DNA of 64,000 bases from Squalus acanthias (taxonomy: Eukaryota): contig JASTWF010000335.1 in assembly GCA_030390025.1 (NCBI GenBank), forward strand, positions 62,001 to 126,000, read 5' to 3'. This document shows positions 3,065 to 27,000 of the stretch, piece by piece. A model generated the notes under the pieces. It saw only the letters and a list, made by a program, of their open reading frames with translations, was not told the origin of the DNA and ran no database searches. Position 1 is the stretch's first letter. Every line of letters starts with the position of its first letter. The translations under genes were made by a program, and so were the position numbers.

Positions 3065-5232
3065 AACTGGGAGGACTGGAGGTAGATAAACAATGGCAAG
3101 CATTTAAAGATAGAATGACAAAATTGCAAAAATTGTTTATACCAATCTGGCATAAAAGGAAATCTAAAAAGGTGACTCAACCGTGGATAACAGGGGAAAT
3201 TAGAGACAGCATAAAATCCAAAGATAGGGCGTATAAAATAGCCAAAAAAAGCACCAGAGCGGAAGATTGGGAACAGTTTAAGATAGAGCAAAGGAGGACA
3301 AAGGGCTTAATCAAGAGGGGCAAAATAGCTTACGAAAGCAAGCTGGCGGAAAATATAAAAACTAACTCCAAAAGCTTTTATAAGTATATCAAGAGGAAAA
3401 GACTGGTGAAAACCAAAGTTGGCCCATTGCAGTCAGATACAGGGGAATATATAACGGGAAATAAGGAAATGGCAGACCAACTAAATGCATACTTTGGGTC
3501 AGTCTTTACGAAGGAAGACACAAAAAACCTCCCTGGGATATCGGGAAAAATAGGGACATTTGCAAAGGAGGAACTGACGCAAATCAATATCTCTAAGGAT
3601 ATGGTGTTAAGGAAGCTAAAGGGATTGAAGGCGGACAAATCCCCAGGGCCTGATAACATGCATCCTAGGGTACTGAAGGAGGTGGCCCTAGAGATAGCGG
3701 ATGCACTAAGTATGATTTTTCAGAATTCATTAGACTCGGGAACAGTGCCCATGGATTGGAGGGTAGCTAACGTTACCCCACTATTCAAAAAGGGGGGTAG
3801 GGAAAAAGCAGGTAATTACAGACCTGTAAGTCTTACATCAGTTGTGGGCAAAATGCTGGAGTCCATCATTAAGGATGAAATAGCGGAGCACTTAGCAAAT
3901 GGGGACAGGATAGGACAGAGTCAACATGGATTTACAAAGGGTAAATCGTGCTTGACTAATCTATTGGAATTTTTTGAGGGAGTAACTGGTAAAATAGATG
4001 GGGGAGAGCCAGTAGATGTGGTGTACCTGGACTTCCAAAAGGCCTTCGATAAGGTCCCACATAAAAGATTAGCAGGGAAAATTGAAGCTCATGGGATAAA
4101 GGGGAAAGTATTGACGTGGATAGAGAACTAGCTGTCAGATAGAAAACAGAGAGTTGGAATAAACGGCTCATTTTCTGAATGGCAGGCAGTAACAAGTGGG
4201 GTACCGCAGGGATCTGTCCTGGGTCCCCAGCTGTTCACAATTTACATTAATGACCTGGATCAGGGAGTCGGATGCAGCATTTCCAAATTTGCAGACGACA
4301 CTAAACTAGGAGGGGGGGTGGGCTCAGAGGAGGAGACCAGGAAGCTCCAGAGCGATTTGGACAGACTGGGTGATTGGGCGGATAAATGGCAGATGCACTA
4401 TAATGTGGACAAGTGCGAAGTTATCCACCTTGGGTGCAGGAACGGGAGGGCAAATTATTATTTAAATGGCAATAAATTGGGAGAGGGGGAAGTACAGAGA
4501 GACCTGGGTGTTCTTGTACACCAGTCACTGAAGGCGAGCATGCAGGTGCAACAGGCGGTCAAGAAGGCAAACGGTATGCTGGCCTTCATAGCAAAAGGGT
4601 TGGAATACAGGAACAGGGATACCTTGCTGCAGCTGTACAGGGCACTGGTGAGACCACACCTCGAGTACTGTGTACAGTTTTGGTCGCCTCATCTGAGGAA
4701 AGATGTTCTTGCCATGGAGGGGGTGCAGCGGCGATTCACCAGGCTGATACCAGGAATGGCGGGATTGACCTATGAGGAGAGACTATGTAGTTTAGGGATG
4801 TACACACTGGAGTTTAGAAGATTGAGAGGGGACCTCATAGAAGTGTATAAAATTCTGACAGGTCTAGACAGACTAGATGCAGAAGGAATGTTTCCCTTGG
4901 CGGGTGAGAACAGAACTAGAGGACATAATTTAAGGATAAGGGCTAAACCATTTAGGACAGAAATGAGGGGGAATTTCTTCACTCAGAGGGTGGTGAACCT
5001 GTGGAACTCATTGCCACAGAGGGCAGTGTACGCCAGCTCATTAAATATATTTAAGAGGGAATTAGATATATTTCTACAGGCAAAAGGGGTTAAGGGTTAC
5101 GGAGAGAAGGCGGGGACGGGATACTGAATTGGAGGATCAGCCATGATCTCATTAAATGGCGGAGCAGGCTCGAAGGGCCGGATGGCCTACTCCTGCTCCT
5201 ATCTTCTATGTATCTATGTATCTATGTATCTA
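3065..5232 (+). mobile_element. CR1 LINE, 5'-truncated, ORF2 RT with one premature stop (4129-4131), intronic
   Basis: Motifs KSPGPD, YRPVSLTS, YLDFQKAFDKV, SGVPQGS, FADDTKL; CR1 3' UTR and (tctatgta)n tail. Confidence 0.95.
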
Positions 5233-5244
5233 CTACTATTTGTA

Positions 5245-8200
5245 CGACTGGGAGAGTAACAGGGAGACAGCGACTGGGAGGGCGCAACCGGGAGAGTGAT
5301 CGGGGGAGAGTGATCGGGGGAGAGTGATCGGGAGAGTGATCGGGGGAGAGTGATCGGGGGAGAGTGATTGGGAGAGAGTGATTGGGAGAGAGTGACCGGG
5401 AGAATGATCGGGAGAGAGCGACTGGGAGAGTGATCAGGGGAGAGTGATCGGGAGAGAGCGACCGGGAGAGTGATCGGGAGAGAGCGACCGGGAGAGAGCG
5501 ACTGGGAGAGAGCGACCGGGAGAGTGATCGGGAGAGAGCGACCGGGAGAGTGATCGGGGGAGAGTGATCGGGGGAGAGTGATCGGGGGAGAGTGATCGGG
5601 GGAGAGTGATCGGGGGAGAGCGATCGGGAGAGAGTGATAGAAACATAGAAACATAGAAAATAGGTACAGGAGTAGACTACTCGGTCCTTCGAGCCTGCAC
5701 CGCCATTCAATGCGTTCATGGCTGAACATGCTACCTCAGTACCCCATTCCTGATTTCTCGCCATACCCCTTGATCCCCCTAGTTGTGAGTGTTATATCTA
5801 ACTCCCTTTTGAATATATTTAGCGAACTGGCCTCAACAACCTTCTGTGGAAGAGAATTCCATAGATTCACCACTCTCTGGGTGAAGAAGTTCCTCCTCCG
5901 CTCAGTCTTAAATAGCTTCCCCTTAATCCTTAGACTGTGACCCCTGGTTCTAGTTTTCCCTAACATTGGGAACATTCTGCCCGCATCTAATTTGTCTAAA
6001 CCAGTCAGGATTTTAAATGTCTCTATAAGATCCCCCCTCATTCTTCTGAACTCCAGAGGATACAAGTTCGGTTGACCCAATCTTTCTTGATATGTCAGTC
6101 CGGCCATCCCAGGAATCAATCTAGTGAACCTTCGCTGCACTCCCTCAATAGCAAGAATGTCCTTCCTTAAGTTAGGAGACCAAAACTGCGCACAATACTC
6201 CAGGTGTGGCCTCACCAAGGCCCTGTACAACTGCAGCATCACCTCCCTACTCCTGTACTCAAATCCCCTTACTATGAAGGCCATCATTCCGTTTGCTTTC
6301 TTGACTGCCTGCTGCACTTGCATTCCCACCTTCAGTGACTGATGTACCATGACGCCCAGGTCTCGTTGCACCTCCCCTTTCCCTAATCTGCCACCATTCA
6401 GGTAATAGTCCGCCTCTCTATTTGTACCACCAAAGTGGATAACCTCACATTTATCCACATTGTACTTCATCTGCCATACATTTGCCCATTCACCCAACCT
6501 GTCCAAGTCACTCTGTAGCCTCCTAGCATCCTCCTCATTGTTCACACTGCCTCCCAATTTAGTGTCATCCGCAAATTTGGAGATATTACATTTAATCCCT
6601 TCGTCCAAATCATTAATATATAATGTAAACAGCTGGGGTCCCAGCACCGAACCCTGCGGTACCCCGCTGGTCACTGCCTGCCATTCTGAAAAGTACCCAT
6701 TTACTCCTACTCTTTGTTTCCTGTGTGCCAACCAGTTCTCAATCCACGTCAACACATTACCCCCAATCCCATGTGCTTTAACTTTGCTCACCAATCTCTT
6801 GTGTGGGACCTTGTCGAAGGCCTTCTGAAGGTCCAAAAAGACCACATCTACTGGTTCCCCCCCATCCACCCTATTGGAAACATCCTCAAAAAATTCCAGA
6901 AGATTTGTCAAGCATGATTTCCCTTTCACAAATCCATGCTGACTTGGACCTATCATGTCGCCACTTTCCAAATGGTCTGTTATGACATCTTTAATAATTG
7001 CTTCCATCATTTTACCCACGACCGATGTCAGGCTGACCAGTCTATAATTCCCTGCTTTCTCCCTCCCTCCTTTTTTAAAAAGAGGGGTTACATTGGCCAC
7101 CCTCCACTCCATCGGAACTGATCCCGAGTCTAAGGAATGTTGGAAAATGATCGTCAATGCATCCACTATTTCCAAGGCCACCTCCTTAAGTACTCTGGGA
7201 TGCAGACCATCAGGCCCCGGGGATTTTTCAGCCTTCAGTCCCATCAATTTCCCCAATACTTTTCCCGACTAATAAGGATTTCCCTCAGCTCCTCCCTCTT
7301 ACCAGATCCTCTGACCCCTTTTATTTCCGGCAGGTTGTGTGTGTCCTCCACAGTAAACACCGAACCAAAGTACTTGTTCAATTGATCAGCCATTTCCTTG
7401 TTCCCCATTACGACTTCCCCTGTTTCCGACTGCAGGGGACCTACGTTTGTTTTTACTAACCTCTTTCTTTTTACATATTTATAGAAGCTTTTGCAGTCCA
7501 TTTTAATGTTCTCTGCAAGCTTCCTTTCATATTTTATTTTCTCTGCCCTAATCAAACCCTTCGTCCTCCTCTGCTGAGTTTTGAAGTTCTCCCAGTCCCC
7601 GGGTTTGCTGCTACTTCTGGCCAATTTGTATGCAACTTCCTTGGTTTTAATACTATCCCTGATTTCCCTTGTTATCCATGGTTGAGCCACCTTCCCTTTT
7701 TTATTTTTACGCCAGACCGGGATGTACAATTGTTGTAGTTCATCCATGCGATCTCTAAATGTCTGCCATTGCCCTTCCACTGATAGCCCCTTAAATATCG
7801 GGGGAGAGTGATCGGGAGAGAGCGACTGGGAGAGTGATCAGGAGAGAGCGACTGGGAGAGAGCGACCGGGAGAGTGATCGGGGGAGAGCGACTGGGAGAG
7901 AGCGACCGGGAGAGTGATCGGGGGAGAGTGATCGGGAGAGTGATCGGGAGAGTGATCGGGAGAGTGATCGGGAGAGTGATCGGGAGAGTGATCGGGAGAG
8001 TGATCGGGAGAGAGCGACTGGGAGAGTGATCGGGAGAGTGATCGGGAGAGAGTGATCGGGAGAGTGATCGGGAGAGAGTGATCGGGAGAGTGATCGGGGG
8101 AGAGTGATCGGGAGAGAGTGATCGGGAGAGAGCGACTGGGAGAGTGATCGGGAGAGAGCGACTGGGAGAGAGCGACCGGGAGAGTGATCGGGAGAGAGCG

Positions 8201-17251: not shown

Positions 17252-17990
17252 ATATAAGAACATAAGAAGTAGGAGCCGGAGTCGGCCATACGACCCCTCG
17301 GGCCTGCTCCGCCATTCAATAGGATCATGGCTGATCCGAACCTAGACTCACGTCCACTTCCCTGCCCGCTCCCCATAACCCTTAATTCCCTTATCAGCTA
17401 GGAAACTGTCTATCTCCGTTTTAAATTTATTTAATGTCGCAGCTTCCACAGCTCTCTGAGGGAGCAAATTCCATCGATTTACTACCCTCTGAGTGAAGAA
17501 GTTTCTCCTCATCTCAGTTTTGAAACGGCAGCTCCTTATTCTAAGATTATGCCCCCTAGTTCTAGTCTCACCCATCAGTGGAAACATCCTCCCCGCCTCC
17601 ACCCGATCAAGCCCCCTCACAATCTTACATGTTTCGATAAGATCGCCTCTCATTCTTCTGAATTCCAATGAGTAGAGGCCCAACCTACTCAACCTTTCCT
17701 CATAAGTCAACCCCCTCATCTCCGGAATCAACTGAGTGAACCTTGTCTGAACTGCCTCGAGAGCAAGTATATATTTTCTTAAATATGGAAACCAAAACTG
17801 TACGCAGTACTCCAGGTGTGTCCTCACCAGTACCCTGTATAGCTGAAGCAAGACTTCCCTGCTTTTATACTCCATCCCCCTTGCAATAAAAGCCAAGATT
17901 CCATTGGCCTTCCTGATCACCTGCTGTACCTGCATACTAACCTTCTGTGTTTCATGCACCAGGACCCCCAGATCCCTTTGTACTGTCGCA
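17252..17990 (-). mobile_element. CR1 3' fragment nested in an older CR1 fragment
   Basis: ORF 17348-17959 is CR1 RT C-terminus; candidate TSD CTTAATAT at 17244-17251 and 17991-17998. Confidence 0.88.
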
Positions 17991-18104
17991 CTTAATATCT
18001 TGAAAATGTGATCAAATCACCACTTAATCTTCTAAATTGCAGTGAATACAACCCTACCAGAGAGCAGATGGGAAAGAGGGAAGGAGAGAGGGATAGAGGG
18101 AGGG

Positions 18105-19080
18105 TGAAAGAATATTTACTAGTCCTTGCCCCTTTGGGGCTATCCCAGATCAGGCGTATTTCTCAGACGTTCACTTTCAACTAAAGTTTAAGGTAACCGA
18201 ATCCTAAAGACGCTTAATTGGGTCTAAAGGTCCGGGCTATCTCTCCCTAAAGGAAAGGAACAACCCAAGAATGTTGCCGTCCTCCAGATAGCACTTTTTT
18301 AATAAGTTTTAGCCAGACTGTAACATCCCGGATATTATGAGGGTCCGGAGATCTCCCCTCAGAAATGTACCTCTCCACCAAACAGTGTCCAGAGATTGGT
18401 TTCGCGAGTTATTGATAGAGAAGACTTATGTGAGACAATTCTAAAAATATATAGAGATTTATTAAAATAATCAACTTGCAATTTACAGTTGGTGAATCAG
18501 TCAATCGCACCGTTAACAGTTCTAAAAAGAGAAAAAATACGATCTTATTTTTAACAGAGAATCTTACTTTTAAATCCATCAATATCAAATTACCTTCGAT
18601 CCCCGAGGTACAAAGAGTGTAAGACTACAGAGCTGCCTCTGTAGTCGAGAATCGCTTTGCCCGATTAAAGCGAGTCTGATATCCCATTTGAGACTTCAAT
18701 ATTTGTACCCTTTTTCAGTTGTATTCCTTACGGTTTTTGCTGATCCAAGTTAATTATCACTATTCATCTTTCTGCTGACTTCCGCAATTCTTTACTGCCG
18801 CATCAGCTTGTAATATTCCAGATTCTGCTGCATCTCCAGGTGTTCTGGCCTCACCATATAGAAGGTGTGATGGGCAGATGTCCCTTATCTCATGTGTCAT
18901 CTTTAAGAGGTGTAATCAAGATCATTTATCCAGGGTTGACCATTGTTCTGTTCCACCCATTCTACTGTTTTAATAAGGTTATTTATTCAGAGTCAACAAC
19001 TGTCTTATCTCAACAAGGCCAGAATTCTTTCATAAGATAGTGTATTTTTTGAAAAAAGTTATATGGCTTATTCCTTCACA
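18105..19080 (-). repeat. Provirus 3' LTR (976 bp)
   Basis: Direct repeat of 24338-25070. Preceded on the minus strand by the PPT; AATAAA (-) at 18458-18463. Confidence 0.92.
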
Positions 19081-19090
19081 CCCCCCTCTT
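19081..19090 (-). other. Polypurine tract AAGAGGGGGG
   Basis: Directly abuts the TG of the 3' LTR on the minus strand. Confidence 0.85.
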
Positions 19091-19568
19091 GACCAAAAAA
19101 TGAGCTCGAGCATCAAGGGCAGGGTTTGGTCAATGTTTCAAATAAGGTTGCAATAGTACATTAAACCACGTTAATTTCACGAGATTTACAGGACCCTAAT
19201 CATGTGCTACATTCAAATTCCTCGAAGTCATCCCCAGGACCATGTTTTGCCTTTTTTTATAATTGGACAGAAATTAAAAGAATGATAGGTACATTGTCAT
19301 GCAATTAGCGAAACAATATGTAATTGGAATGTCCAGTTGGCAGATGTACGTTCCGTAGAGGGGAGTTCTTCATACGAGACGTTGTTGGAGCTGGCTGAAG
19401 CTTGACCAAATCTGCAATTTTCTGAAGGCTGTGATCTTGATCGCTGTTCCGTTGATCCAGCGTGAGGACAGATTCTGCTAGTATCAGAGAAGACTGTTGG
19501 AGCGAGCGGCTGTTCATTGATGTCGAACGTTTCTTGTGACGTCGGGAAGAGTCACTTGATTTTATAAA

Positions 19569-19959
19569 TGATGTGGAGATGCCGGTGTTGGGACTGGGGT
19601 GGACAAATGTGAGAAGTCGCACAACACCAGGTTATAGTCCAACAGTTTTAATTGAAATCACGAGCTTTCGGAGCTGCTGCTCCTTCGTCAGGTGAAGTGA
19701 AGAGATGCATATAGGCACAGCATATATAGTCAGAGAACACAGCCAGGTGACTACAGTTAATCTTTCTAACTGCCCTTTATCACACCTCGGCAGAGAGATA
19801 ATCACAGCAATCAAAGGTGTGGATGGTGTCCTGACTATATATGCTGTGCCTATATGCATCTCTTCACTTCACCTGACGAAGGAGCAGCTCTCCGAAAGCT
19901 TGTGATTTCAAATAAAGCGGTTGGACTATAACCTGGTGTTGTGCGACTTCTCACATTTT
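19569..19959. mobile_element. Non-autonomous Penelope-like pseudo-LTR insertion with inverted arms and two hammerhead motifs
   Basis: Inverted arms at 19605-19733 and 19831-19958; homologous to the Penelope 3' end at 42060-42283; TSD ATTTTATAAA at 19559-19568 and 19960-19969; absent from the paralogous segment near 22005. Confidence 0.8.
19868..19904 (+). ncRNA. Minimal type I hammerhead ribozyme motif (second copy on - at about 19658-19695)
   Basis: TCAC-CTGACGA-aGGAG cagct CTCC-GAAA-GCTT-GTGA: conserved core, stem I, stem II and palindromic stem III. Confidence 0.65.
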
Positions 19960-20711
19960 ATTTTATAAATTCCGTAAAAGATTGATTTAATGGTACAACC
20001 GCTCTATACACATCCGATTGGTATACCGGGAGAGAAGTATTATCAAACTGTTCCTCAAACGATGATGAACCATTAGAGAGGTAAGTTCTGTCATCAGGAG
20101 ACTTTGGTTTTCGATTGTTTTCTTAAAGGTCTTGCCAAAAGCTCAGTTGATTCCTTCTCCATCTGTAGTGCGTTCCTCCTTCGTTGAAGTAACTTGTTGG
20201 TCTTTACTTGTTTCGGTTGTGGCTTTTTGCGAAACCAATTTCTGAGGCATTGCCAAGCATTGTGTGGAGGAGTCGGCGACACCGTCTGGCTGACCGTTGT
20301 CAGTAGTTCGATCGCATCTGTTTCCGGTGTCGTGCTCCAAGCTGGGTCTTGGAAGACAGTGTACGACTGCACCTTGTATTGTTGCTCCATTCCGGTATCC
20401 CGCAGGACATCTTTTTAGATTGTCTATGGAGACAGTTTTAAGAATATGCTTGCCATTCGGCTGATTAAAGGATATTTCAACAGTTCTTTCGTTAATAACG
20501 GAACGTATTTGAACAGGTTTTTTCCACTTAGGTCTTAAACTAGGTTTTTGCTCAAACTTCTTTTCCTCTACCCATTCTCCTGCTAGGGGTTGCCATGCTT
20601 TGTCAATTTTTTCTGCTGATTTGTCTCCCTTATCCTCTGATCAATTTGATGAATCTCATCTGTTATTTCTTTTTTTTAATCTAACTGTTGCTGTCGGGTC
20701 AAGGAATCAGA

Positions 20712-21438
20712 GGGCTGGATTTTGATACTGGGGCGGGTTGGGGTCGTGTTATCCACCCGCCTGCAATTGGATGTGGGAGATTGATGCAATTTTCACTTAA
20801 TTGGGCAATTGAGTTCCAGCATGTGGGAACCCATGACCCAATTAGTGGTTTCAGTCTGAAAGTCGCCTCTGATGATGTCATCATTGCTGCTGCATTGAAG
20901 GTCTTCAGAGGCTACCTGGCCTTTGCTGTGAGAGGACCTGGATGCAAAATGAGCAGCATCTGAGAGAGAGGGAGAGAGAGAGAGAATTTTTTTTTTGCAT
21001 CCAGGTCCTCTCACAGCAAAGGCCAGGCAGCCTCTGAAGACCTTCAATGCAGCAGCATCAGAGGCGACTTTCAGACCTAATACTACTACTACCTTCATCA
21101 CATCTCCGTTGTAGTAGTGGATCTGCAGCTGATAGTCAGCTATCCACTTGTGTTCCCGCCAGGTTTCACTGGCGTGTTTCACCTCAGGCGTGCTTCACGT
21201 GGGAAAAGGGTTAAACTAGCTAAAACGTTTCAAAATGGCATTACAGAGCCAATTTAGGGCTTGTTAAGGGCTTTAATGGCCTCTCCCGCCTCTTGGAGGC
21301 GGGACGGAGTCGGGAACACCGCGACCGATTTTGTCAAAATTGCGTGGAGGCGGGATCAGGTCCGCCCGCCACTTTTCGCAATTTTAACCCCCCACACACC
21401 TCCAAACCCGCCTCCACGGGTCATTAAAAATCCAGCCC
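20712..21438. mobile_element. MITE with GGGCTGGATTTT...AAAATCCAGCCC TIRs (PIF/Harbinger-like)
   Basis: 12-bp perfect TIRs; sister copy at 58272-59001 has a 3-bp TTT TSD. Confidence 0.85.
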
Positions 21439-21439
21439 A

Positions 21440-22434
21440 ATGTAATTAGAATGTCCAATTGGCAGATGTACGTTCTGTAGAGGGGAGTTCTTCATACGAG
21501 TCAAGGAGACGTTGTTGGAGCTGGCTAAAGCTTGACCAAATCTGCAATTTTCTGAAGGCTGTGATCTTGATCGCTGTTCCATTGATCCAGTGTGAGGACA
21601 GATTCTGCTAGTATCACAGAATCCCCACAGTGCAGATGGAGGCCATTTTGGCCCATCGAGCCTGCACCGACACATATCTCACCCTATCCCCGTAACCCCA
21701 CGTATTTAATCCCCCCTAACACTAAGGGTCAATTTAACATAGCCAAATTAACCTAACCCGCACATTTTTGGACTGTGGGAGGAAACCGGAGCACCCGGAG
21801 GAAACCCACACAGACATGGGGAGAATGAGCAAACTCCACACAGACAGTCACCCGGGGCCGGATTCGAACCCAGGTACCTGGCGCTGTGAGGCAACAGTGC
21901 TACCCACTATGCCACCGTGTTGCCCCTATCAGAGAAGACTGTTGGAGCGAGCAGCTGTTCATTGATGTCGAACGTTTCTTGTGACGTCGGGAAGAGTCAC
22001 TTGATTTTATAAAGTCCGTAAAAGATTGATTTAAAGGTACAACCGCTCTATACACATCCGATTGGTATACCGGGAGAGAAGTATTATCAAACTGTTCCTC
22101 AAACGATGATGAACCATTAGAGAGGTAAGTTCTGTCATCAGGAGACTTTGGTTTTCGATTGTTTTCTTAAAGGCCTTGCCAGAAGCTCAGTTGATTCCTT
22201 CTCCATCTGTAGTGCGTTCCTCCTTCGTTGAAGTAACTTGTTGGTCTTTACTTGTTTCGGTTGTGGCTTTTTGCGAAACCAATTTCTGAGGCGCTGCCAA
22301 GCATCGTGTGGAGGAGTCGGCGACACCGTCTGGCTGACCGTTGTCAGTAGTTCGATCACATCCATTTCCTGTGTCGTGCTCCAAGCTGGGTCTTGGAAGA
22401 CAGTGTACGACTGCACCTTGTGTCGTTCCTCCAT
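21440..22434 (-). pseudogene. env: Foamy-like env remnants (N-terminal piece plus SU/TM junction); duplicate copy at about 19320-20390
   Basis: An open frame from about 22165 down reads ..FIKSSDSSRRHKKR/STSMNS.SLQQSSLILAESVLTLDQ.NSDQDHSLQKIADLVK. By eye this aligns with the foamy Env furin site and TM start (RKRR/SVDNNYAKL..LTGAVQTLSQ..D..LQ). Confidence 0.65.
21617..21926 (-). mobile_element. tRNA-derived HE1/V-SINE-like SINE, full length
   Basis: Minus-strand A-box TGGCATAGTGG and B-box GGTTCGAATCC; V-domain CTCCGGGTGCTCCGGTTTCCTCCCACAGTCCAAA; CR1-like tail; TATCA TSD at 21612-21616 and 21927-21931. Confidence 0.85.
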
Positions 22435-22439
22435 TCCGG

Positions 22440-23640
22440 TATCCCGCAGGACATCTTTTTAGATTGTCTATGGAGACAGTTTTAAGAATATGCTTGCCAT
22501 TCGGCTGATTAATCTGTCTTTCAACAGTTCTTTCGTTAATAACGGAACGTATTTGAACAGGTTTTTTCCCACTTCGGTCTTAAACCAGGTTTTTGCTCGA
22601 ACTTCTTTTCCTCTACCCATTCTCCTGCTGGGGGCTGCCATGCTTTGTTTGTCAATTTTTTCTGCTGATTTGCCTCCATTATCCTCTGATCAATTCGATA
22701 TATCTCATCTGTTACTTCCTTTTTTTAAATCTAACTGTTGTTGTCGGGTCAAGGAATCAGAGAGTGTAGAGGCAATAAAAGAACTATGGGTAAGCGGTGT
22801 ATGCATCTCAACCCCATACATCAGATAATATGGAGTTTTAGGGGACACTGTCCCTGATGCAGATGCGGGCACATTATTAAGTGATAGCTGCACCTCCGGA
22901 ATGACGGTGGTCCACTTATTTCCCCTGATTCTCAACAGTTTGACCAATAGCTTTTTTACTTCCTGGTTTTTACGTTCCACCAGCCCCGCTGATTGCGGAT
23001 GACGTGGTGTGCTGTGCTCTTACCCAATCCCTTTGTTCGCAGTAGTCTTTGAAGACCTTGGAGACAAAGGCTCTGCCTTGATCGGAGTGTAAGATTTTGG
23101 GTGCACCAGCTACAGTAATTATGTCAGTAATAGCCCTGGCGAGTGCGTTTTCCGAAACAGTTTTTGTGGGGACCAGCCAGCAGAAGGAAGTGCATCCATC
23201 TACACAAACGAGAACATGTCTGTGTCCCAAAGATGGGGGAAGTGGTCCAATGATGTCAATAAAGAATTTTCCCATTGGTTCATCAGCTTTCACAGGAGCC
23301 AATGGTGGTGGCTTAATTAGTGAGGACTTATTGGCTAAATTGCATGGCTCACAATTTGCCATGTATGTTTTACAGACCTTAAGCATGCCTGGTCACCAAT
23401 ATAAGGGGGTCAATTTGCAGAATGTTGTTCTAGCACCAAAATGTGCTTGACTTATGTCCTCGTGAGCTTCTTTTACAAGCTGTTCTCGTTTGTTTCTTGG
23501 GGGTACCTCTCGGTTTCCCTTGGGCAACTTAACTGGCACAATACCCGTAGGGGTTTCCGAGTAAAAGTACTTTGATGGATATCCTGGTGGATTCTCTTTT
23601 GTTGGGTCCAACAGCTGAATCAGTTCCACATCCTCATTAG
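22440..23640 (-). pseudogene. pol: Foamy-like integrase (N-terminal extension, HHCC, DDE core, C-terminal domain) with stops and frameshifts
   Basis: Reads GYPSKYFY..VPPRNKREQLVKEAH..AHFG..LYW*PGM..CEPC; KFFIDIIGPLPPS.G..VLVCVDG; LHSDQGRAF; HSTPRHPQSAGLVERKN; WQPPAGEWV..LRPKW..TVSIDNLK. All resemble prototype foamy virus IN as I recall it. Confidence 0.9.
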
Positions 23641-24073
23641 CTGCCCGTTCTGTCCTAGTGATAACACTGATATTGGCAGGCCCCTCTCGAGGGGGTGTCA
23701 TGCAGACCGAACGTTTTGCTTGTTCGTCTGCAAGACTGTTGTCTTTTGAGTGTACTGTCCCAGTGGTATGCCCATTTACATGAATCACCTGACAATTCTG
23801 TTTCTCCATCCTCGAACGGAGAATGTCTTCCCACAATGACTTACGTTTTATGGGTTTACCCTTATGATTGGTAAAGTTTGTTTGTTCCCAGAAAACTAGA
23901 TCTTGGTAATATCCTCTTTTACAATAGTCACTATCTGTACAGATTAATGTGGGTTTAATAAGGTCTGCCTTTTCTAAAGCATACCGTAGTGCTGTGGCTT
24001 CAGCATATTGCGCTGTCTTATGGCCAAGGGTTCCTAATAAAAAGACTTGGCCATTTCCGACAGGGTTTGCCAT
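23640..24073 (-). pseudogene. pol: Retroviral RNase H (N-terminally truncated) in a 226-aa ORF starting at ATG 24073
   Basis: Reads LGHKTAQYAE..ICTDSDY..FW..NFTNHKGKPIKRKSLW..IHVNGH..NSLADEQA. The first catalytic Asp motif is missing. Confidence 0.85.
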
Positions 24074-24318
24074 TTCGTCAGGACCTAACCTCGGTTAGGA
24101 TTTAATATGAACTTTATAAGAAATTTCTAGACCTCAATGGTATATTGAGGGAGTTCTGATTTAAGTTCTACAAGGCCTGATCAGGGACTTGTCATCTCTA
24201 GAGACTTAAATCTGGGTCTTAGCACCACTGTCAGTAAAACACTCCTTCCGTACTTAACAACCTACGAGATGGATATAGATATAAATATAGGTATAGGGTT
24301 CTGCATCAACTTGTTATC

Positions 24319-24335
24319 ACACACGTTGGTCGCCA
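24319..24335 (-). other. Primer binding site, tRNA-Lys1,2-like (TGGCGACCAACGTGTG)
   Basis: Lies 2 nt after the 5' LTR CA end and is close to the foamy PBS TGGCGCCCAACGTGGG. Confidence 0.8.
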
Positions 24336-24337
24336 AC

Positions 24338-25070
24338 TGAAAGGATATTTACTAGTCCTAGCCCCTTTGGGGCTACCCCAGATCAGGCGTATTTCTCAGA
24401 TGTTCACTTTCAACTAAAGGTTGAGGTAGCCGAATCCTAAAGACGCTTAACTGGGTCTAAAGGTCTGGACCATCTCTCCCTAAAGGAAAGGAACAACCCG
24501 AGAATGCTGCCGCCCTCCAGATAGCACTTTTAATAAGTTTAGCCAGACTGTAACGTCCCGGATATTATGAGGGTCCGGAGATCTCCCCTCAGAAATGTAA
24601 CTCTCCATCAAAGAGTGTACAGAGATTGGGTTCGCGAGTTATTGATACAGAAGACTTTTGTGAGACAATTCTAAAAATATATAGAGATTTATTAAAAGAA
24701 CCGACATGCAATTTACAGTTGGTGAATCAGTCAATCGCAACATTAACAGTTCTAAAAAGAGAAAAAATACGATCTTATTTTTAACAGAGAATCTTACTTT
24801 TAAATCTTAACTTCGCTACAGTATTACAGCTCTTAAAATTTTCTATACAGGATATCAATCAATATCAAATTACCTTCAATCCCCGAGGTACAAAGAGTGT
24901 AAGACTACAGAGCCACCTCTGTAGTCGAGAATCGCTTTACCCGATTAAAGCGAGTCTGATATCCCATTTGAGACGTCAATATTTATACCCTTTTTCAGTT
25001 GTATTCCTTAAGAATTCTTTCATAAGATAGTGTATTTTTTGAAAAAGGTTATATGGCTTATTCCTTCACA
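24338..25070 (-). repeat. Provirus 5' LTR (733 bp; lacks about 290 bp of U3 present in the 3' LTR)
   Basis: Aligns to 18105-19080; TATAAAT (-) at 24981-24987 and AATAAA (-) at 24688-24693. Confidence 0.92.
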
Positions 25071-26674
25071 AGGGAAGGAGAGAGGGAAGGAGAGAGTAGG
25101 GAGGGAAGGTGAGAGCGAGGGAGGGAATGAGGGAGAGGGAGTGAGGGAGGGAGAGAAGGAGGGAGGGAAGGAGGGAGGGAGAGAGTGAGGGAAGAAAGAA
25201 TGGAGAGAGGGAATGAAAGTGGGAGGAAGAGAGGGAAGGAGGGAAGCTGAGAGGTAGGGAGAGAAAGGGAAGGAGTGAGGGAGGGAGGGACAAATAGAGG
25301 GAAGAAGGAAGGAAGAGATAGAAGGAGGGAGGGAGAGAGGGAAGGAGAGAAGGGAGAGAGGGAACAAAGGAAGGAGGGAAGGAGAGGGAGAGAGATAGAA
25401 GGAGGAAGGGAGAAAGGGAATGAGACAAGGAAGGGAGAAAGGGAAGGAGACAAGAAAGACAGGGAAGGAGAGAGCGAGGAAGCGGCAGAGGGAAGGAGAG
25501 GGAGGGAATGTAAGAGGGAGGGAGAGAGGGAAGGAGAGAGAGGAGGGAAGGAGCGAGGGAGGGAGGGGGAAGGAGAGCAGGAAGGAGAGTGGGAAGGAAA
25601 GAGGTTCAGAGGGACGGAGAGAGGGAAGCAGAGTAAGAGGGAGAGAGGGAAGAAGGGAAAGAGAGAGGGAAGGAAGGAAGGAGAGAGGAAATTAAAGAGG
25701 GAGAGAGAGAGGGAACGGGAGGGAGAGAGCAAAGGAGGGAAGGAGAGAGGGTGGGAGAAAGGGAAGAAGAGAAGGAGGGAGACGGAATGAAAGGGAGAGA
25801 GGGAGTGAAAGGGCGAAGGAAGGAAGAAATGAGAGAGAGAGGGAGGAAAGGAGAGAGGGAAGGAGAGGGAGGGAGAGAGAGGAGAGTAGGAGGGAGAGAG
25901 GGAAGGAGAGTGGATAGGAGAGAGGGAAGGAGGGAAGCAGAGAGGGAGAGAGAGAGGGAAGGAGAGAGCGGGAGAGAGAGGGAAGGAGAGAGAGAGGTTA
26001 AGGAGAAACAGAGGGAGAAAGGGAAGGAGCGAACGAGATAGGGAGGGAGAGAGTGAAGGAGGGTGGGAGAGAGTGAAGGAGGGTGGGTGAGAGGGAGGGA
26101 GAGATGGAGGGAGAGAAGGACAGATGGAGGCAGAGAGGGAGGGAGGAAATGAGGAGGGAAGGAGGGAGGGAAGAGAGAGGGAGGGAGAGAGGGAAGGCAG
26201 GGAGGGAGAGAGGGAAGAAGAGGGGGAAGAGGGAAGAAGAGGGGGAAGAGGGAAGGAGAGCGGGAGAGTGGGAGGAGAGAGGGAAGGAGGGAAGGAGAGT
26301 GTGAAGGAGCAAGGGAAGTAGAGAGGGAGGGAGAGATGGAGGGAGAGAGAGAAAGAAGGAAGGTGAGAAGGAAGGAGAGGGAAGGAGAGAAGGAGGGAAA
26401 GAATTAAGAAGTGAAGGCGAGAGGGAAGGAGAGAAAGGAAAGGAGGGTAGGAGAGAAAGGAAAGGAGGTAAGGAGAGTGTGAAGGAGCGAGGGAAGGAGA
26501 GAGGGAAGGAGAGAGAGAGGGATGGAGTGAAGGAGGGATGGAGGTAAGGAGAGAGAGAAGGAGAGAGGGAGAGATTGAAGCAGGGAAGGAGAGAGGGAGA
26601 GAGAGAGGAAAGAGAGGGTGGGACGGAGGAAAGGAGAGTGGGAAGGAGAGAGGGAGGGAGAGAGGGAAGGAGAA

Positions 26675-27000
26675 AGAAAGAAAGCCTTGCATTTCTATAG
26701 CGCCTTTCTCGACCACCGGACGTCTCAAGGCGCTTTACAGCCAATGAAGTACTTTTGAAGTGGAGTCACTGTTGTAATGTGGGAAACGCGGCAGCCAGTT
26801 TGAGCCCAGCAAGCTCCCACAAACAGCAATGTGATAATGACCCAGATAATCTGTTTTAGTGATGTTGGTTGAGGGATAAATATTGGGCCCCAGGACTCCG
26901 GGGATAACTCCCCGGCTCTTCTTCAAAATACTGACTTGGGATCTTTTACATCCACCTGAGAGAGCAGACGGGGCCTCGGTTTAACGTCTCATCCGAAAGA
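26675..27000 (-). mobile_element. DeuSINE/SacSINE1-like SINE fragment
   Basis: Same core as 11340-11642, with a (AAAG)n tail at 26670-26683. Confidence 0.7.

Follow-up and report, generated by a model that had tools for sequence, protein, structure and literature searches.

A decayed foamy-like provirus and its internally deleted relatives in the genome of Squalus acanthias

Introduction

Endogenous foamy viruses of cartilaginous fish were reportedly described by Wang, Chen and Cui in J Virol in 2023 (97:e0181622), in a paper whose title has them rooting to the vertebrate foamy viruses. Judged by that title, these elements are of the same kind and from the same host class as the family analyzed here. 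The original prediction of an undescribed lineage was thus not upheld, and the copy found in the window (the whole 64,000-nucleotide stretch of Squalus acanthias DNA under analysis) is of a known kind, foamy-like viruses of cartilaginous fish being already in print. Among other endogenous retroviruses (ERVs), IAP, or MusD with ETn, are env-less, intragenomically amplified families with non-autonomous derivatives.

Foamy-like ERVs of the elephant shark are known as CmiFLERV/CmiERV (PMC5512871; PMC4422223), and ERV-Spuma.0-Sca of the small-spotted catshark is an element of 9,220 bp with 866-bp LTRs (PMC10699275). According to the excerpted text of the latter source, neither Gag nor Env domains were detected in the element, which grouped with FLERVs of ray-finned fish. 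As these sources present them in the parts considered, the elephant shark and catshark elements resemble the window family in being chondrichthyan foamy-like or 'Spuma' ERVs with LTRs of several hundred bp and a few-percent LTR divergence. The LTR of ERV-Spuma.0-Sca differs from the window LTR in a comparison of the first 400 printed bases, and none of four end motifs of the present family was found in the supplement carrying this element (PMC10699275).

The exogenous foamy viruses (simian, prototype/human and feline) are like the family in the order of the Pol domains, the A9 protease, the integrase N-terminal extension and the SH3-type C-terminal domain. The likeness extends to the central domain of Gag, the Env family, the Lys1,2-type primer-binding site (PBS), the 4-bp target-site duplication (TSD) and LTRs of ~1 kb. 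In contrast to these viruses, the shark family is endogenous and multi-copy.

Structure of the Provirus

The element lies on the minus strand, as indicated by a minus-strand PBS at 24318-24335 and a polypurine tract (PPT) at 19081-19090; the LTR at 24338..25070 (733 bp) is therefore the 5' LTR, and that at 18105..19080 (976 bp) is the 3' LTR. Both LTRs are on the minus strand and have TG..CA ends. Self-BLAST aligned them in matching blocks of 93.4% identity over 472 bp, 95.5% over 157 bp and 98.3% over 60 bp. A segment of 290 bp, retained in the 3' LTR and in other copies, is missing from the 5' LTR as a private internal deletion, and the 5' LTR contains ~47–50 additional bases. The K2P distance between the window LTRs was 0.061 (683 sites), and that in three sibling copies was 0.033–0.054. 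The similarity of the window LTRs to each other is not greater than their similarity to at least 39 other copies of the family.

Direct reading revealed AGGG on both sides of the element, at 18101..18104 on its 3' side and at 25071..25074 on its 5' side. Both flanks consist of GA-rich simple repeat, where 4–10% of all 4-mers are AGGG; taken by itself, the pair is therefore a weak indication of a TSD and may be due to chance. A 4-bp TSD for the family is supported by perfect duplications in four of the four solo LTRs examined and in one sibling provirus, L046 (GATG). The spacing of foamy integrase corresponds to a 4-bp TSD.

The PBS TGGCGACCAACGTGTGTG, read directly at 24318..24335 on the minus strand, is separated from the LTR by a 2-base spacer (24336-24337). 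It matches the complement of a tRNA-Lys(CTT)-type 3' end at 14 of 18 bases and at 13 of the first 14, and the mismatched sixth position is C in two other family copies. The 21-nt candidate motif, which we take to be the tRNA-Lys(CTT)-type 3' end, has 633 sites in the host genome at two or fewer mismatches, against one site for the reversed control. Judged by its sequence, the PBS appears to be of the Lys1,2 type; foamy viruses are stated to have a PBS complementary to tRNA-Lys1,2 (PMC5035957, excerpted text). The leader between the PBS and the gag start (24074..24317, minus strand) is colinear with that of sibling copies.

The PPT AAGAGGGGGG (19081..19090, minus strand) abuts the 3' LTR, and sibling copies have the identical tract ahead of their LTRs. 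No second AAGAGGGGGG or AGAGGGGG was found within pol in the window and eight stretches from six sibling copies, where the purine-rich runs are other ones. In this the family differs from exogenous foamy viruses, for which a copy of the 3' PPT inside integrase is reported as conserved in the part of PMC5035957 considered.

The coding interior is strongly reduced. Gag codons 1-14 (MANPVGNGQVFLLG; 24032..24073, minus strand) are fused in frame, at the deletion junction 24031|24030, to the C-terminal two thirds of RNase H (23714..24030, minus strand), which matches residues 636-743 of the foamy PR-RT structure 7O24 (E=6e-19). The first ~45 residues of RNase H, which hold the DGS motif in siblings (VIYCDGSS upstream of the junction), are absent. 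The fusion frame is open for 226 codons from the gag ATG. The integrase (22394..23665, minus strand), identified by matches to PFV integrase and Pfam rve, consists of the N-terminal extension, HHCC, the DDE core and the C-terminal SH3 domain. A TGA at 23393-23395 and frameshifts within 23019-23030, 22718-22720 and 22567-22569 disrupt its reading frame, and the D, D and E residues survive in the broken frames. The rest of gag, the protease and RT, all present in exogenous foamy viruses, are lacking, and env is represented by remnants only.

Downstream of integrase, the element contains a partial tandem duplication of ~1.1–1.4 kb on the minus strand. The proximal unit (21440..22393) comprises the env start and a remnant of middle env (21927-22134), and carries a SINE-like insertion of 305 bp (21622-21926); the distal unit does not have it, and the two alignments share 10 bp at that point. 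The distal unit (19318..20712) comprises the integrase C-terminal domain, the env start and an env remnant; an ORF at 20143-20640 gave an SH3_11 match of 39.4 bits, and the unit is interrupted by an inverted-repeat insertion of 385 bp (19569-19953). Identity between the units was 94.8% (19954-20712 versus 21998-22762). They are separated by a non-family spacer of 727 bp (20713..21439), which resembles another repeat: it has an internal 65-bp inverted repeat, finds no match in an env-bearing copy, and is 83% similar to a stretch adjoining another family copy (L021). The unique tail upstream of the PPT (19091..19317, minus strand) is derived from post-env sequence, and element positions 5693-6023 match what follows env on contig C20, where an env-bearing copy lies.

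The LTRs, AGGG flanks, PBS, PPT and RNase H with integrase, which the original prediction had named, were all confirmed in their predicted places. The provirus as a whole is not intact, its interior being gutted.

Phylogenetic Position

Searches of the retroviral Pol region of the window gave Pfam scores of 59.5 bits for RNase_H and 44.2 bits for rve, and the best structure matches were foamy. For RNase H, the top five matches in the structure database were foamy PR-RT or RNase H (6e-19 to 7e-14), whereas bacterial and MLV-type RNase H matched only at 1e-5 or weaker. All eight database matches of the integrase core at E<=0.01 were PFV integrase or chains named 'Integrase'. PFV integrase aligned over residues 86-206 (E=2e-28) and over residues 8-84 (E=3e-6), the latter bearing out the predicted N-terminal extension; the integrase motifs quoted from the sequence can likewise be aligned with PFV integrase or the foamy consensus.

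The careful tree was constructed from 28 rows and 505 RNase H–integrase columns, with X placed at the four breaks of the window sequence. The window copy and three siblings formed one group with 100/100 support, which joined nine exogenous foamy genomes, a newt protein and protein P0008 in a clade with 100/99 support. This foamy clade was separate from eight other retroviral rows and five Gypsy rows, the latter serving as the outgroup, and the shark family branched outside the mammalian foamy clade. The quick tree of whole Pol (36 rows) agreed with the foamy placement (100 SH-aLRT). The rows of both trees were drawn without ERV-L/class III, lentivirus, betaretrovirus or published fish and elephant-shark FLERV sequences. 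The placement of the family fits the rooting that Wang, Chen and Cui reportedly claim in their title.

Fuller sibling copies provided further evidence. They encode a foamy Gag and a Pol of A9 protease–RT–RNase H–integrase, and six copies only have a foamy Env. Sibling Pol was 39% identical to rhesus SFV Pol over 92% of its length (761 bits), against 192 bits for the next non-foamy match, and whole sibling Pol showed 37–40% identity to all 14 foamy genomes versus 23–32%, over partial lengths, to the rest. Gag_FV_central was detected in one sibling copy with 51.7 bits (cut-off 30), and Spuma_A9PTase in two siblings with 37.3 and 26.2 bits (cut-off 21). Foamy_virus_ENV matched three env ORF pieces of one same-family copy (36.8, 77.1 and 47.5 bits), and PF03408 had 11 matches in the genome, every one above its cut-off. 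In the ~1 kb interval between env and LTR of one decayed env-bearing copy, no tas/bet-like sense ORF of at least 70 aa was found.

Taken with the PBS and the 4-bp TSD, the structure matches, the two trees and the sibling Gag, protease and Env domains support the identification of the locus as a germline foamy-like retrovirus, as had been predicted.

Membership in Gypsy/Ty3 (Metaviridae) was rejected, with the Gypsy rows standing apart at 100/99 and a separate RNase_H (PF00075) found in the element. Orthoretrovirinae (gamma/epsilon-type and delta-like references) were rejected as well, as they formed a separate clade in both trees; the integrase tail of the family is SH3_11 instead of the MLVIN_C or IN_DBD_C of the orthoretroviral reference rows.

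Copies of the Family in the Genome

The genome was surveyed with equal 250-bp probes, which gave 468 integrase-bearing, 153 RT-bearing and six env-bearing copies; a separate search gave ~3,895 LTR matches. All these counts are uncurated first-look candidates. The original prediction had considered such elements rare, which hundreds of internal copies and ~3,900 LTR matches contradict. Different copies of the family are 92–93% alike. The ratio of integrase-bearing to RT-bearing copies of ~3:1 means that forms without RT are about twice as common as those with it. In these respects the family is like IAP and MusD/ETn, having few env copies (six versus ~470 with integrase) and internally deleted forms that outnumber RT-bearing ones. 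It differs from them in being foamy-like and in that its derivatives keep an in-frame RNase H–integrase rather than non-coding filler.

In a fuller copy, the gag and RNase H sides of the window junction stand 3,462 bp apart. The uninterrupted window-type junction was found at four of 40 scored places, namely in the window and in three other copies whose flanks differ from those of the window; for one of them (L046), the GATG TSD was fully read. The deleted form with this junction is integrated at no fewer than four loci. In the siblings sharing the junction, the frame is interrupted by different stops, at codons 35 and 78. Apart from the window class, gag, protease and RT have been lost in two or more independent deletion events. 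All classes retain the leader and the initial 14–38 gag codons (42–114 bases), the final ~1.9 kb of pol, the PPT and the LTR; in each, the gag start codon is fused in frame to RNase H–integrase.

A primer-site-like GTTGGCGAC follows the 3' LTR of sibling L045, which indicates that rearranged arrays occur in the family.

Origin of the Locus

The locus is very probably a single provirus of a foamy-like ERV family, old, dead and non-autonomous, inserted on the minus strand. We consider it improbable that two family copies, recombined or nested, make up the 7-kb structure and that its outer LTRs come from different elements. Such an origin would account for the unequal LTR lengths (733 versus 976 bp) and for the two integrase C-termini with 727 bp of foreign sequence between them, whose likeness of 94.8% is close to the 92–93% seen between different copies; the weakness of the AGGG pair in its GA-rich flank and the L045 array also agree with it. 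However, both flanks are one GA-rich simple repeat and join as a single site with a single AGGG, the spacer contains none of this repeat, and each duplicated unit has a private insertion, which fits a duplication that arose in place and later aged.

Far less probable still is an element of another type, i.e., a class III (ERV-L-like) or epsilon/gamma-type ERV or a Gypsy-type retrotransposon. Gypsy elements likewise have RT_RNaseH and Integrase_H2C2 domains, and the trees contained no ERV-L, lentivirus or betaretrovirus reference; against this stand the 100/99 foamy clade, away from Gypsy rows and from retroviruses with MLVIN_C-type or IN_DBD_C-type tails, the foamy-specific Pfam families of sibling Gag, protease and Env, all exceeding curated cut-offs, and the whole-Pol identities to foamy genomes. 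The 226 open codons in frame with the gag ATG could be read as a gag–RNase H–integrase host gene still in use, but the one TGA and three frameshifts in integrase, the loss of the first catalytic motif from RNase H and the stops in the junction-sharing siblings make co-option the least credible of these readings. The window copy presumably has no present function.

For the single provirus, the following history is proposed. A deleted genomic RNA would have arisen, probably through template switching in reverse transcription, and would have retained the leader and gag start, the 3' portion of pol, the PPT and the LTR. This RNA may then have been packaged, primed by tRNA-Lys and integrated with the help of trans-acting proteins, presumably from the ~150 RT-bearing copies. 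After integration, the 5' LTR would have lost its 290 bp, the partial tandem duplication would have arisen, two nested insertions would have been acquired, and the reading frame would have decayed.

Discussion

Minimal foamy vectors of PFV, SFVmac and FFV need CAS-I, CAS-II and CAS-III in cis (PMC5035957, excerpted text). At the sequence level, the deleted shark forms share the layout of such vector backbones as described there (leader with early gag, 3' pol, PPT with LTR); the backbones are engineered, whereas the shark forms are natural. It is conceivable, though on balance doubtful, that the window copy is one of a population of natural 'mini foamy genomes' that would keep the CAS-I/CAS-II/CAS-III set. 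Recurrent in-frame mini-genomes retaining the cis needs of foamy vectors may be a new point.

If this layout was selected, the foamy need for an RNA element in 3' pol would date to the split from the viruses of cartilaginous fish, and the mini-genomes may have relied on translating their own integrase-containing fusion protein.

Organization of the Foamy-like Element

The foamy-like element at 18105..25070 is oriented on the minus strand and, read in its own sense, is flanked on both sides by CCCT. The 733-bp 5' LTR (25070-24338) and the 976-bp 3' LTR (19080-18105) both start with TG and end with CA. The 5' LTR is followed by a two-base spacer, the primer site TGGCGACCAACGTGTGTG (24335-24318, read from sequence), a leader of 244 bp between primer site and gag, and the gag start codon (24073-24071), after which 14 gag codons remain. 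At the deletion junction 24031|24030, gag is joined to the C-terminal two thirds of RNase H (to about 23714); the integrase (about 23665-22394), a rearranged non-coding interior, the polypurine tract (PPT) AAGAGGGGGG (19090-19081) and the 3' LTR follow. Thus, the LTR pair, primer site, PPT, RNase H and integrase of the original prediction were confirmed at this locus. The locus is not the near-intact rare provirus it had been taken for, being a decayed non-autonomous copy from an abundant foamy-like family.

Compared with fuller copies in the same assembly (3.71 Gb, 3,882 contigs), the stretch of 3,462 bp that separates gag codon 14 from RNase H is missing, a loss that removed gag, protease and RT; no clear microhomology was found at the junction. 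Relative to an env-bearing copy, env has lost two stretches, one of about 1.5 kb and the other of about 1.4 kb, leaving the very start of the gene, a mid-env remnant of about 290 bp and the post-env tail. A TGA at 23393-23395 interrupts the integrase, as do frameshifts located within 23019-23030, 22718-22720 and 22567-22569.

A segment of about 1.1-1.4 kb, which extends from the C-terminal domain of integrase as far as the env remnant, occurs twice. Its units agree at 94.8% (19954-20712 versus 21998-22762) and are parted by 727 bp of unrelated sequence (20713-21439). Three siblings sharing the window's junction lack the duplication, which is therefore private to this locus. The proximal unit alone carries a SINE-like insert of 305 bp (21622-21926), opposite which two alignments of the distal unit overlap by 10 bp, as expected of a target duplication; neither ARAGORN nor Rfam gave a hit within 18000-25200, and the insert is therefore only tentatively called a SINE, from its shape. 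A 385-bp insert forming a long inverted repeat (19569-19953) is present in the distal unit only, and its opposite-strand ORFs 19632-19868 and 19696-19905 begin with the same peptide. The 727-bp spacer contains a 65-bp inverted repeat (20885-20949 / 20993-21057) and is probably another interspersed repeat, because a sequence next to a further copy of the family (L021, 5074-5734) shows 83% similarity to it.

The primer site is also present in siblings, with CpG-type decay; its sixth position is C in two copies and A in the window. A 21-base motif, which we take to be the 3' part of vertebrate tRNA-Lys(CTT), matched 633 genome sites at ≤2 mismatches versus 1 for the reversed control, and the first 100 matches listed were all exact, many of them in arrays. 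The window primer site agrees with the primer implied by this motif at 14 of 18 bases, including 13 of the first 14. Exact matches to this motif form dense arrays on contig C21, at about 9.9-11.0 Mb, and on contig C26, at about 39.4-44.3 Mb; some are regularly spaced at about 1.8 kb, and the arrays look like large tandem tRNA gene clusters. In the sibling locus L045 (G000:C10:63223000-63232999, oriented 5315-6380), the 3' LTR is followed by GTTGGCGAC, the beginning of a primer site, which suggests a tandem or recombinant LTR-internal-LTR-internal arrangement.

LTR Divergence and Boundaries

The 5' and 3' LTRs match in blocks of 93.4% over 472 bp, 95.5% over 157 bp and 98.3% over 60 bp. A 290-bp stretch of the 3' LTR is absent from the 5' LTR, which has about 47-50 extra bases. 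The 290-bp stretch also occurs in other copies, where roughly 280-500 bp separate the match to LTR positions 1-60 from that to positions 53-733. According to a block-guided alignment, the K2P distance between the LTRs is 0.061 over 683 sites (25 transitions, 15 transversions; the 290 bp excluded), or 0.052 without CpG sites. A distance of 0.11 from a global MAFFT alignment was discarded, as the 290-bp gap was misplaced and the distance inflated. Two siblings sharing the window's junction gave 0.054 and 0.040, and an env-bearing copy on contig C20 gave 0.033 (partial alignment).

The age of the window copy hinges on the substitution rate assumed for the host. It would be about 61 My at 0.5e-9 per site per year, the rate assumed for catshark in the text of PMC10699275, about 139 My at 2.2e-10, assumed for elephant shark in that of PMC4422223, and about 31 My at 1e-9.

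The insertion is surrounded by a long GA-rich simple repeat (25071-26734 and 18000-18104), which yields spurious minus-strand open frames of up to 558 aa. AGGG accounts for 4% of the 4-mers in this repeat on the left and 10% on the right, so that the AGGG pair flanking the window copy is weak evidence alone. Support for the boundaries comes from family copies rather than from this pair. Identical 4-mers were found on both sides of four of four solo LTRs (L003, L004, L007 and L008), sampled as having both ends locatable, no PPT in front and no primer site behind; the sibling provirus L046 has GATG at both flanks. Beside the element, a 222-aa minus-strand open frame (17348-18016) gave no Pfam match at E≤0.01; it resembles the C-terminal part of a CR1/L2-type LINE ORF2.

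Foamy Virus Affinity of the Encoded Proteins

In the structure database, all eight sequences matching the window integrase core at E≤0.01 (best E = 2e-28) were prototype foamy virus (PFV) integrase or chains named 'Integrase'; the latter, covering the same region, we take to be PFV core domains. The top five matches of the RNase H piece were foamy PR-RT or RNase H (6e-19 to 7e-14), followed by PFV integrase residues 8-84, comprising the N-terminal extension and zinc domain (3e-6); weaker matches included bacterial RNase HI (1e-5) and MLV/XMRV RNase H (1e-4 to 1e-2). The RNase H alignment begins at foamy residue 636, and about 45 residues at the start of the domain are therefore missing; the DGS motif of the siblings falls within this part.

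Fuller siblings show about 90% protein identity with the window copy. Their proteins matched Gag_FV_central (51.7 bits, cut-off 30) and Spuma_A9PTase (37.3 and 26.2 bits, cut-off 21), as well as the Pfam models RVT_1, RNase_H, Integrase_H2C2, rve and SH3_11. One natural sibling pol frame of 1,153 residues shows 39% identity to the Pol of rhesus macaque simian foamy virus (SFV) across 92% of its length, at 761 bits. Its identity to feline foamy virus (FFV) Pol is 37%, and the best non-foamy match reached 192 bits. In the C20 copy, three env frame pieces matched Foamy_virus_ENV (36.8, 77.1 and 47.5 bits, cut-off 27). A second env-bearing copy (G000:C22:33862000-33880000, loci L032-L034) has several kb inserted between integrase and env and further inserted sequence in its 5' part. 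No accessory ORFs of at least 70 aa were found after env in the one env-bearing copy examined.

Phylogenetic trees were constructed with 22 retroviral loci drawn from a viral-contig collection as references. Fourteen of these are foamy genomes, whose Pol shares 62-100% identity with named SFV or FFV proteins. Pfam analysis of four of the eight non-foamy references indicated MLVIN_C-type tails in L064, L065 and L068 and an IN_DBD_C-type tail in L070; the other four were typed by tree position alone. In a quick whole-Pol tree (36 rows, 1,135 columns; the four breaks of the window copy were bridged with X), the window and three siblings formed one group. This group clustered with the 14 foamy genomes, a newt protein and P0008, a protein from a public assembly, with support of 100, separately from 10 other retroviral rows and six Gypsy rows. 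A more careful RNase H-integrase tree was restricted to window-covered columns (28 rows, 505 columns), omitting five near-duplicate foamy genomes and the rows L067, L069 and P0015. There, the foamy clade including the present family received 100/99, the window with its siblings 100/100, the mammalian foamy viruses 100/99, and the present family with P0008 and the newt protein 90/88. The predicted foamy position of the window in an RNase H/integrase phylogeny thus held among the rows included, which in both trees comprise several long branches and no ERV-L, lentivirus, betaretrovirus or published fish foamy-like endogenous retrovirus (FLERV) rows.

P0008 and the newt protein are the nearest relatives of the family outside the host genome. 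P0008 is a Gag-Pol-like protein of 1,687 aa, 35% identical to the family Pol, with SH3_11; it differs from the family in that its protease fits the ordinary RVP model, not the A9 one. Protein searches found no annotated shark protein of the family, and the only shorter annotated relative was a toad protein (35% identical). Together, the structure matches, the trees and the sibling Gag, A9 protease, Pol and Env bear out a foamy-like germline virus, and the foamy-like assignment of the family is well supported.

Family Size and Deleted Genomes

The family was counted with equal 250-bp DNA probes, because protein-level counts (4,971 for RNase H-integrase, 15,410 for RT) include other retroelements and were rejected as copy numbers. 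The probes gave first-look candidate counts rather than curated copy numbers: 468 for the integrase core (40 scored, all at least 96% identical), 153 for RT (40 scored, 97-100%) and six for the env TM region (six scored). A search with the 733-bp LTR gave 3,895 genome candidates, and a protein search with the gag central domain gave 354. With 3,895 LTR and 468 integrase candidates, the rarity ascribed to the element does not stand.

A 200-bp probe across the window's junction yielded 667 candidates, 40 of which were scored. The junction was uninterrupted at four places, the window included, while its halves lay 152-158 bp apart at 14 and 186-201 bp apart at nine; one place with a distance of 143 bp belongs to the 152-158-bp class with a further small loss. 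The gag side alone was found at 11 places and the pol side alone at one; these shares are biased, since scoring favours places with both halves. When representatives were aligned to a full copy, the three classes broke at 5175|8638 (window), about 5189|8495 and about 5247|8516. Neither of the latter two can derive from the other, and the window class could be a further deletion inside either. In all three, the gag start leads in frame into RNase H-integrase, the number of gag codons retained being 14, 19 and 38. The flanks of the four copies with the window's junction differ, and a separate 4-bp duplication borders L046; integration of the deleted genome therefore took place more than once, presumably with proteins provided in trans.

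Comparison with Known Foamy Viruses

According to the text of PMC5035957, the foamy virus cis elements are CAS-I, running from R-U5 through about the first 200 gag bases and including the Lys1,2 primer site; CAS-II, about 1.8 kb encoding C-terminal Pol domains and called unique among retroviruses; and CAS-III, the PPT plus LTR. Exactly these three parts are retained in the deleted mini-genomes. Foamy viruses also have an internal copy of the 3' PPT in pol (PMC5035957), whereas no such copy was found in the window or in eight stretches from six siblings.

Foamy-like elements of cartilaginous fish are a kind already published, among them CmiFLERV of elephant shark (PMC5512871) and ERV-Spuma.0-Sca of small-spotted catshark (PMC10699275). 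The latter looks like a different element from the family, differing in its LTR start as printed (first 400 characters), size and domain content (PMC10699275). Family motifs were not found in the supplement sequences of that paper, which are printed to 400 characters and so show a differing LTR start only. A literature text search, covering papers outside subscription and part of the supplements, found no further chondrichthyan foamy report. Endogenous foamy viruses of cartilaginous fish were reportedly also treated in J Virol in 2023. A possible novelty is the population of mini-genomes that are fused in frame and resemble foamy vectors in their layout; the evidence for it is suggestive, not conclusive.

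No retroviral lineage is known to be older than the foamy viruses, whose deep history is read from endogenous copies. The window locus alone adds little. For a fish element, the family is unusually similar to present-day foamy viruses, judged by its Pol (39% identity over almost the entire length) and its recognisable Gag, protease and Env. Its copy number is unusually high as well, so that many dated copies are available for studying early foamy virus evolution. The family further illustrates how a virus of foamy type became a genomic parasite that lacks env and has given rise to non-autonomous derivatives.
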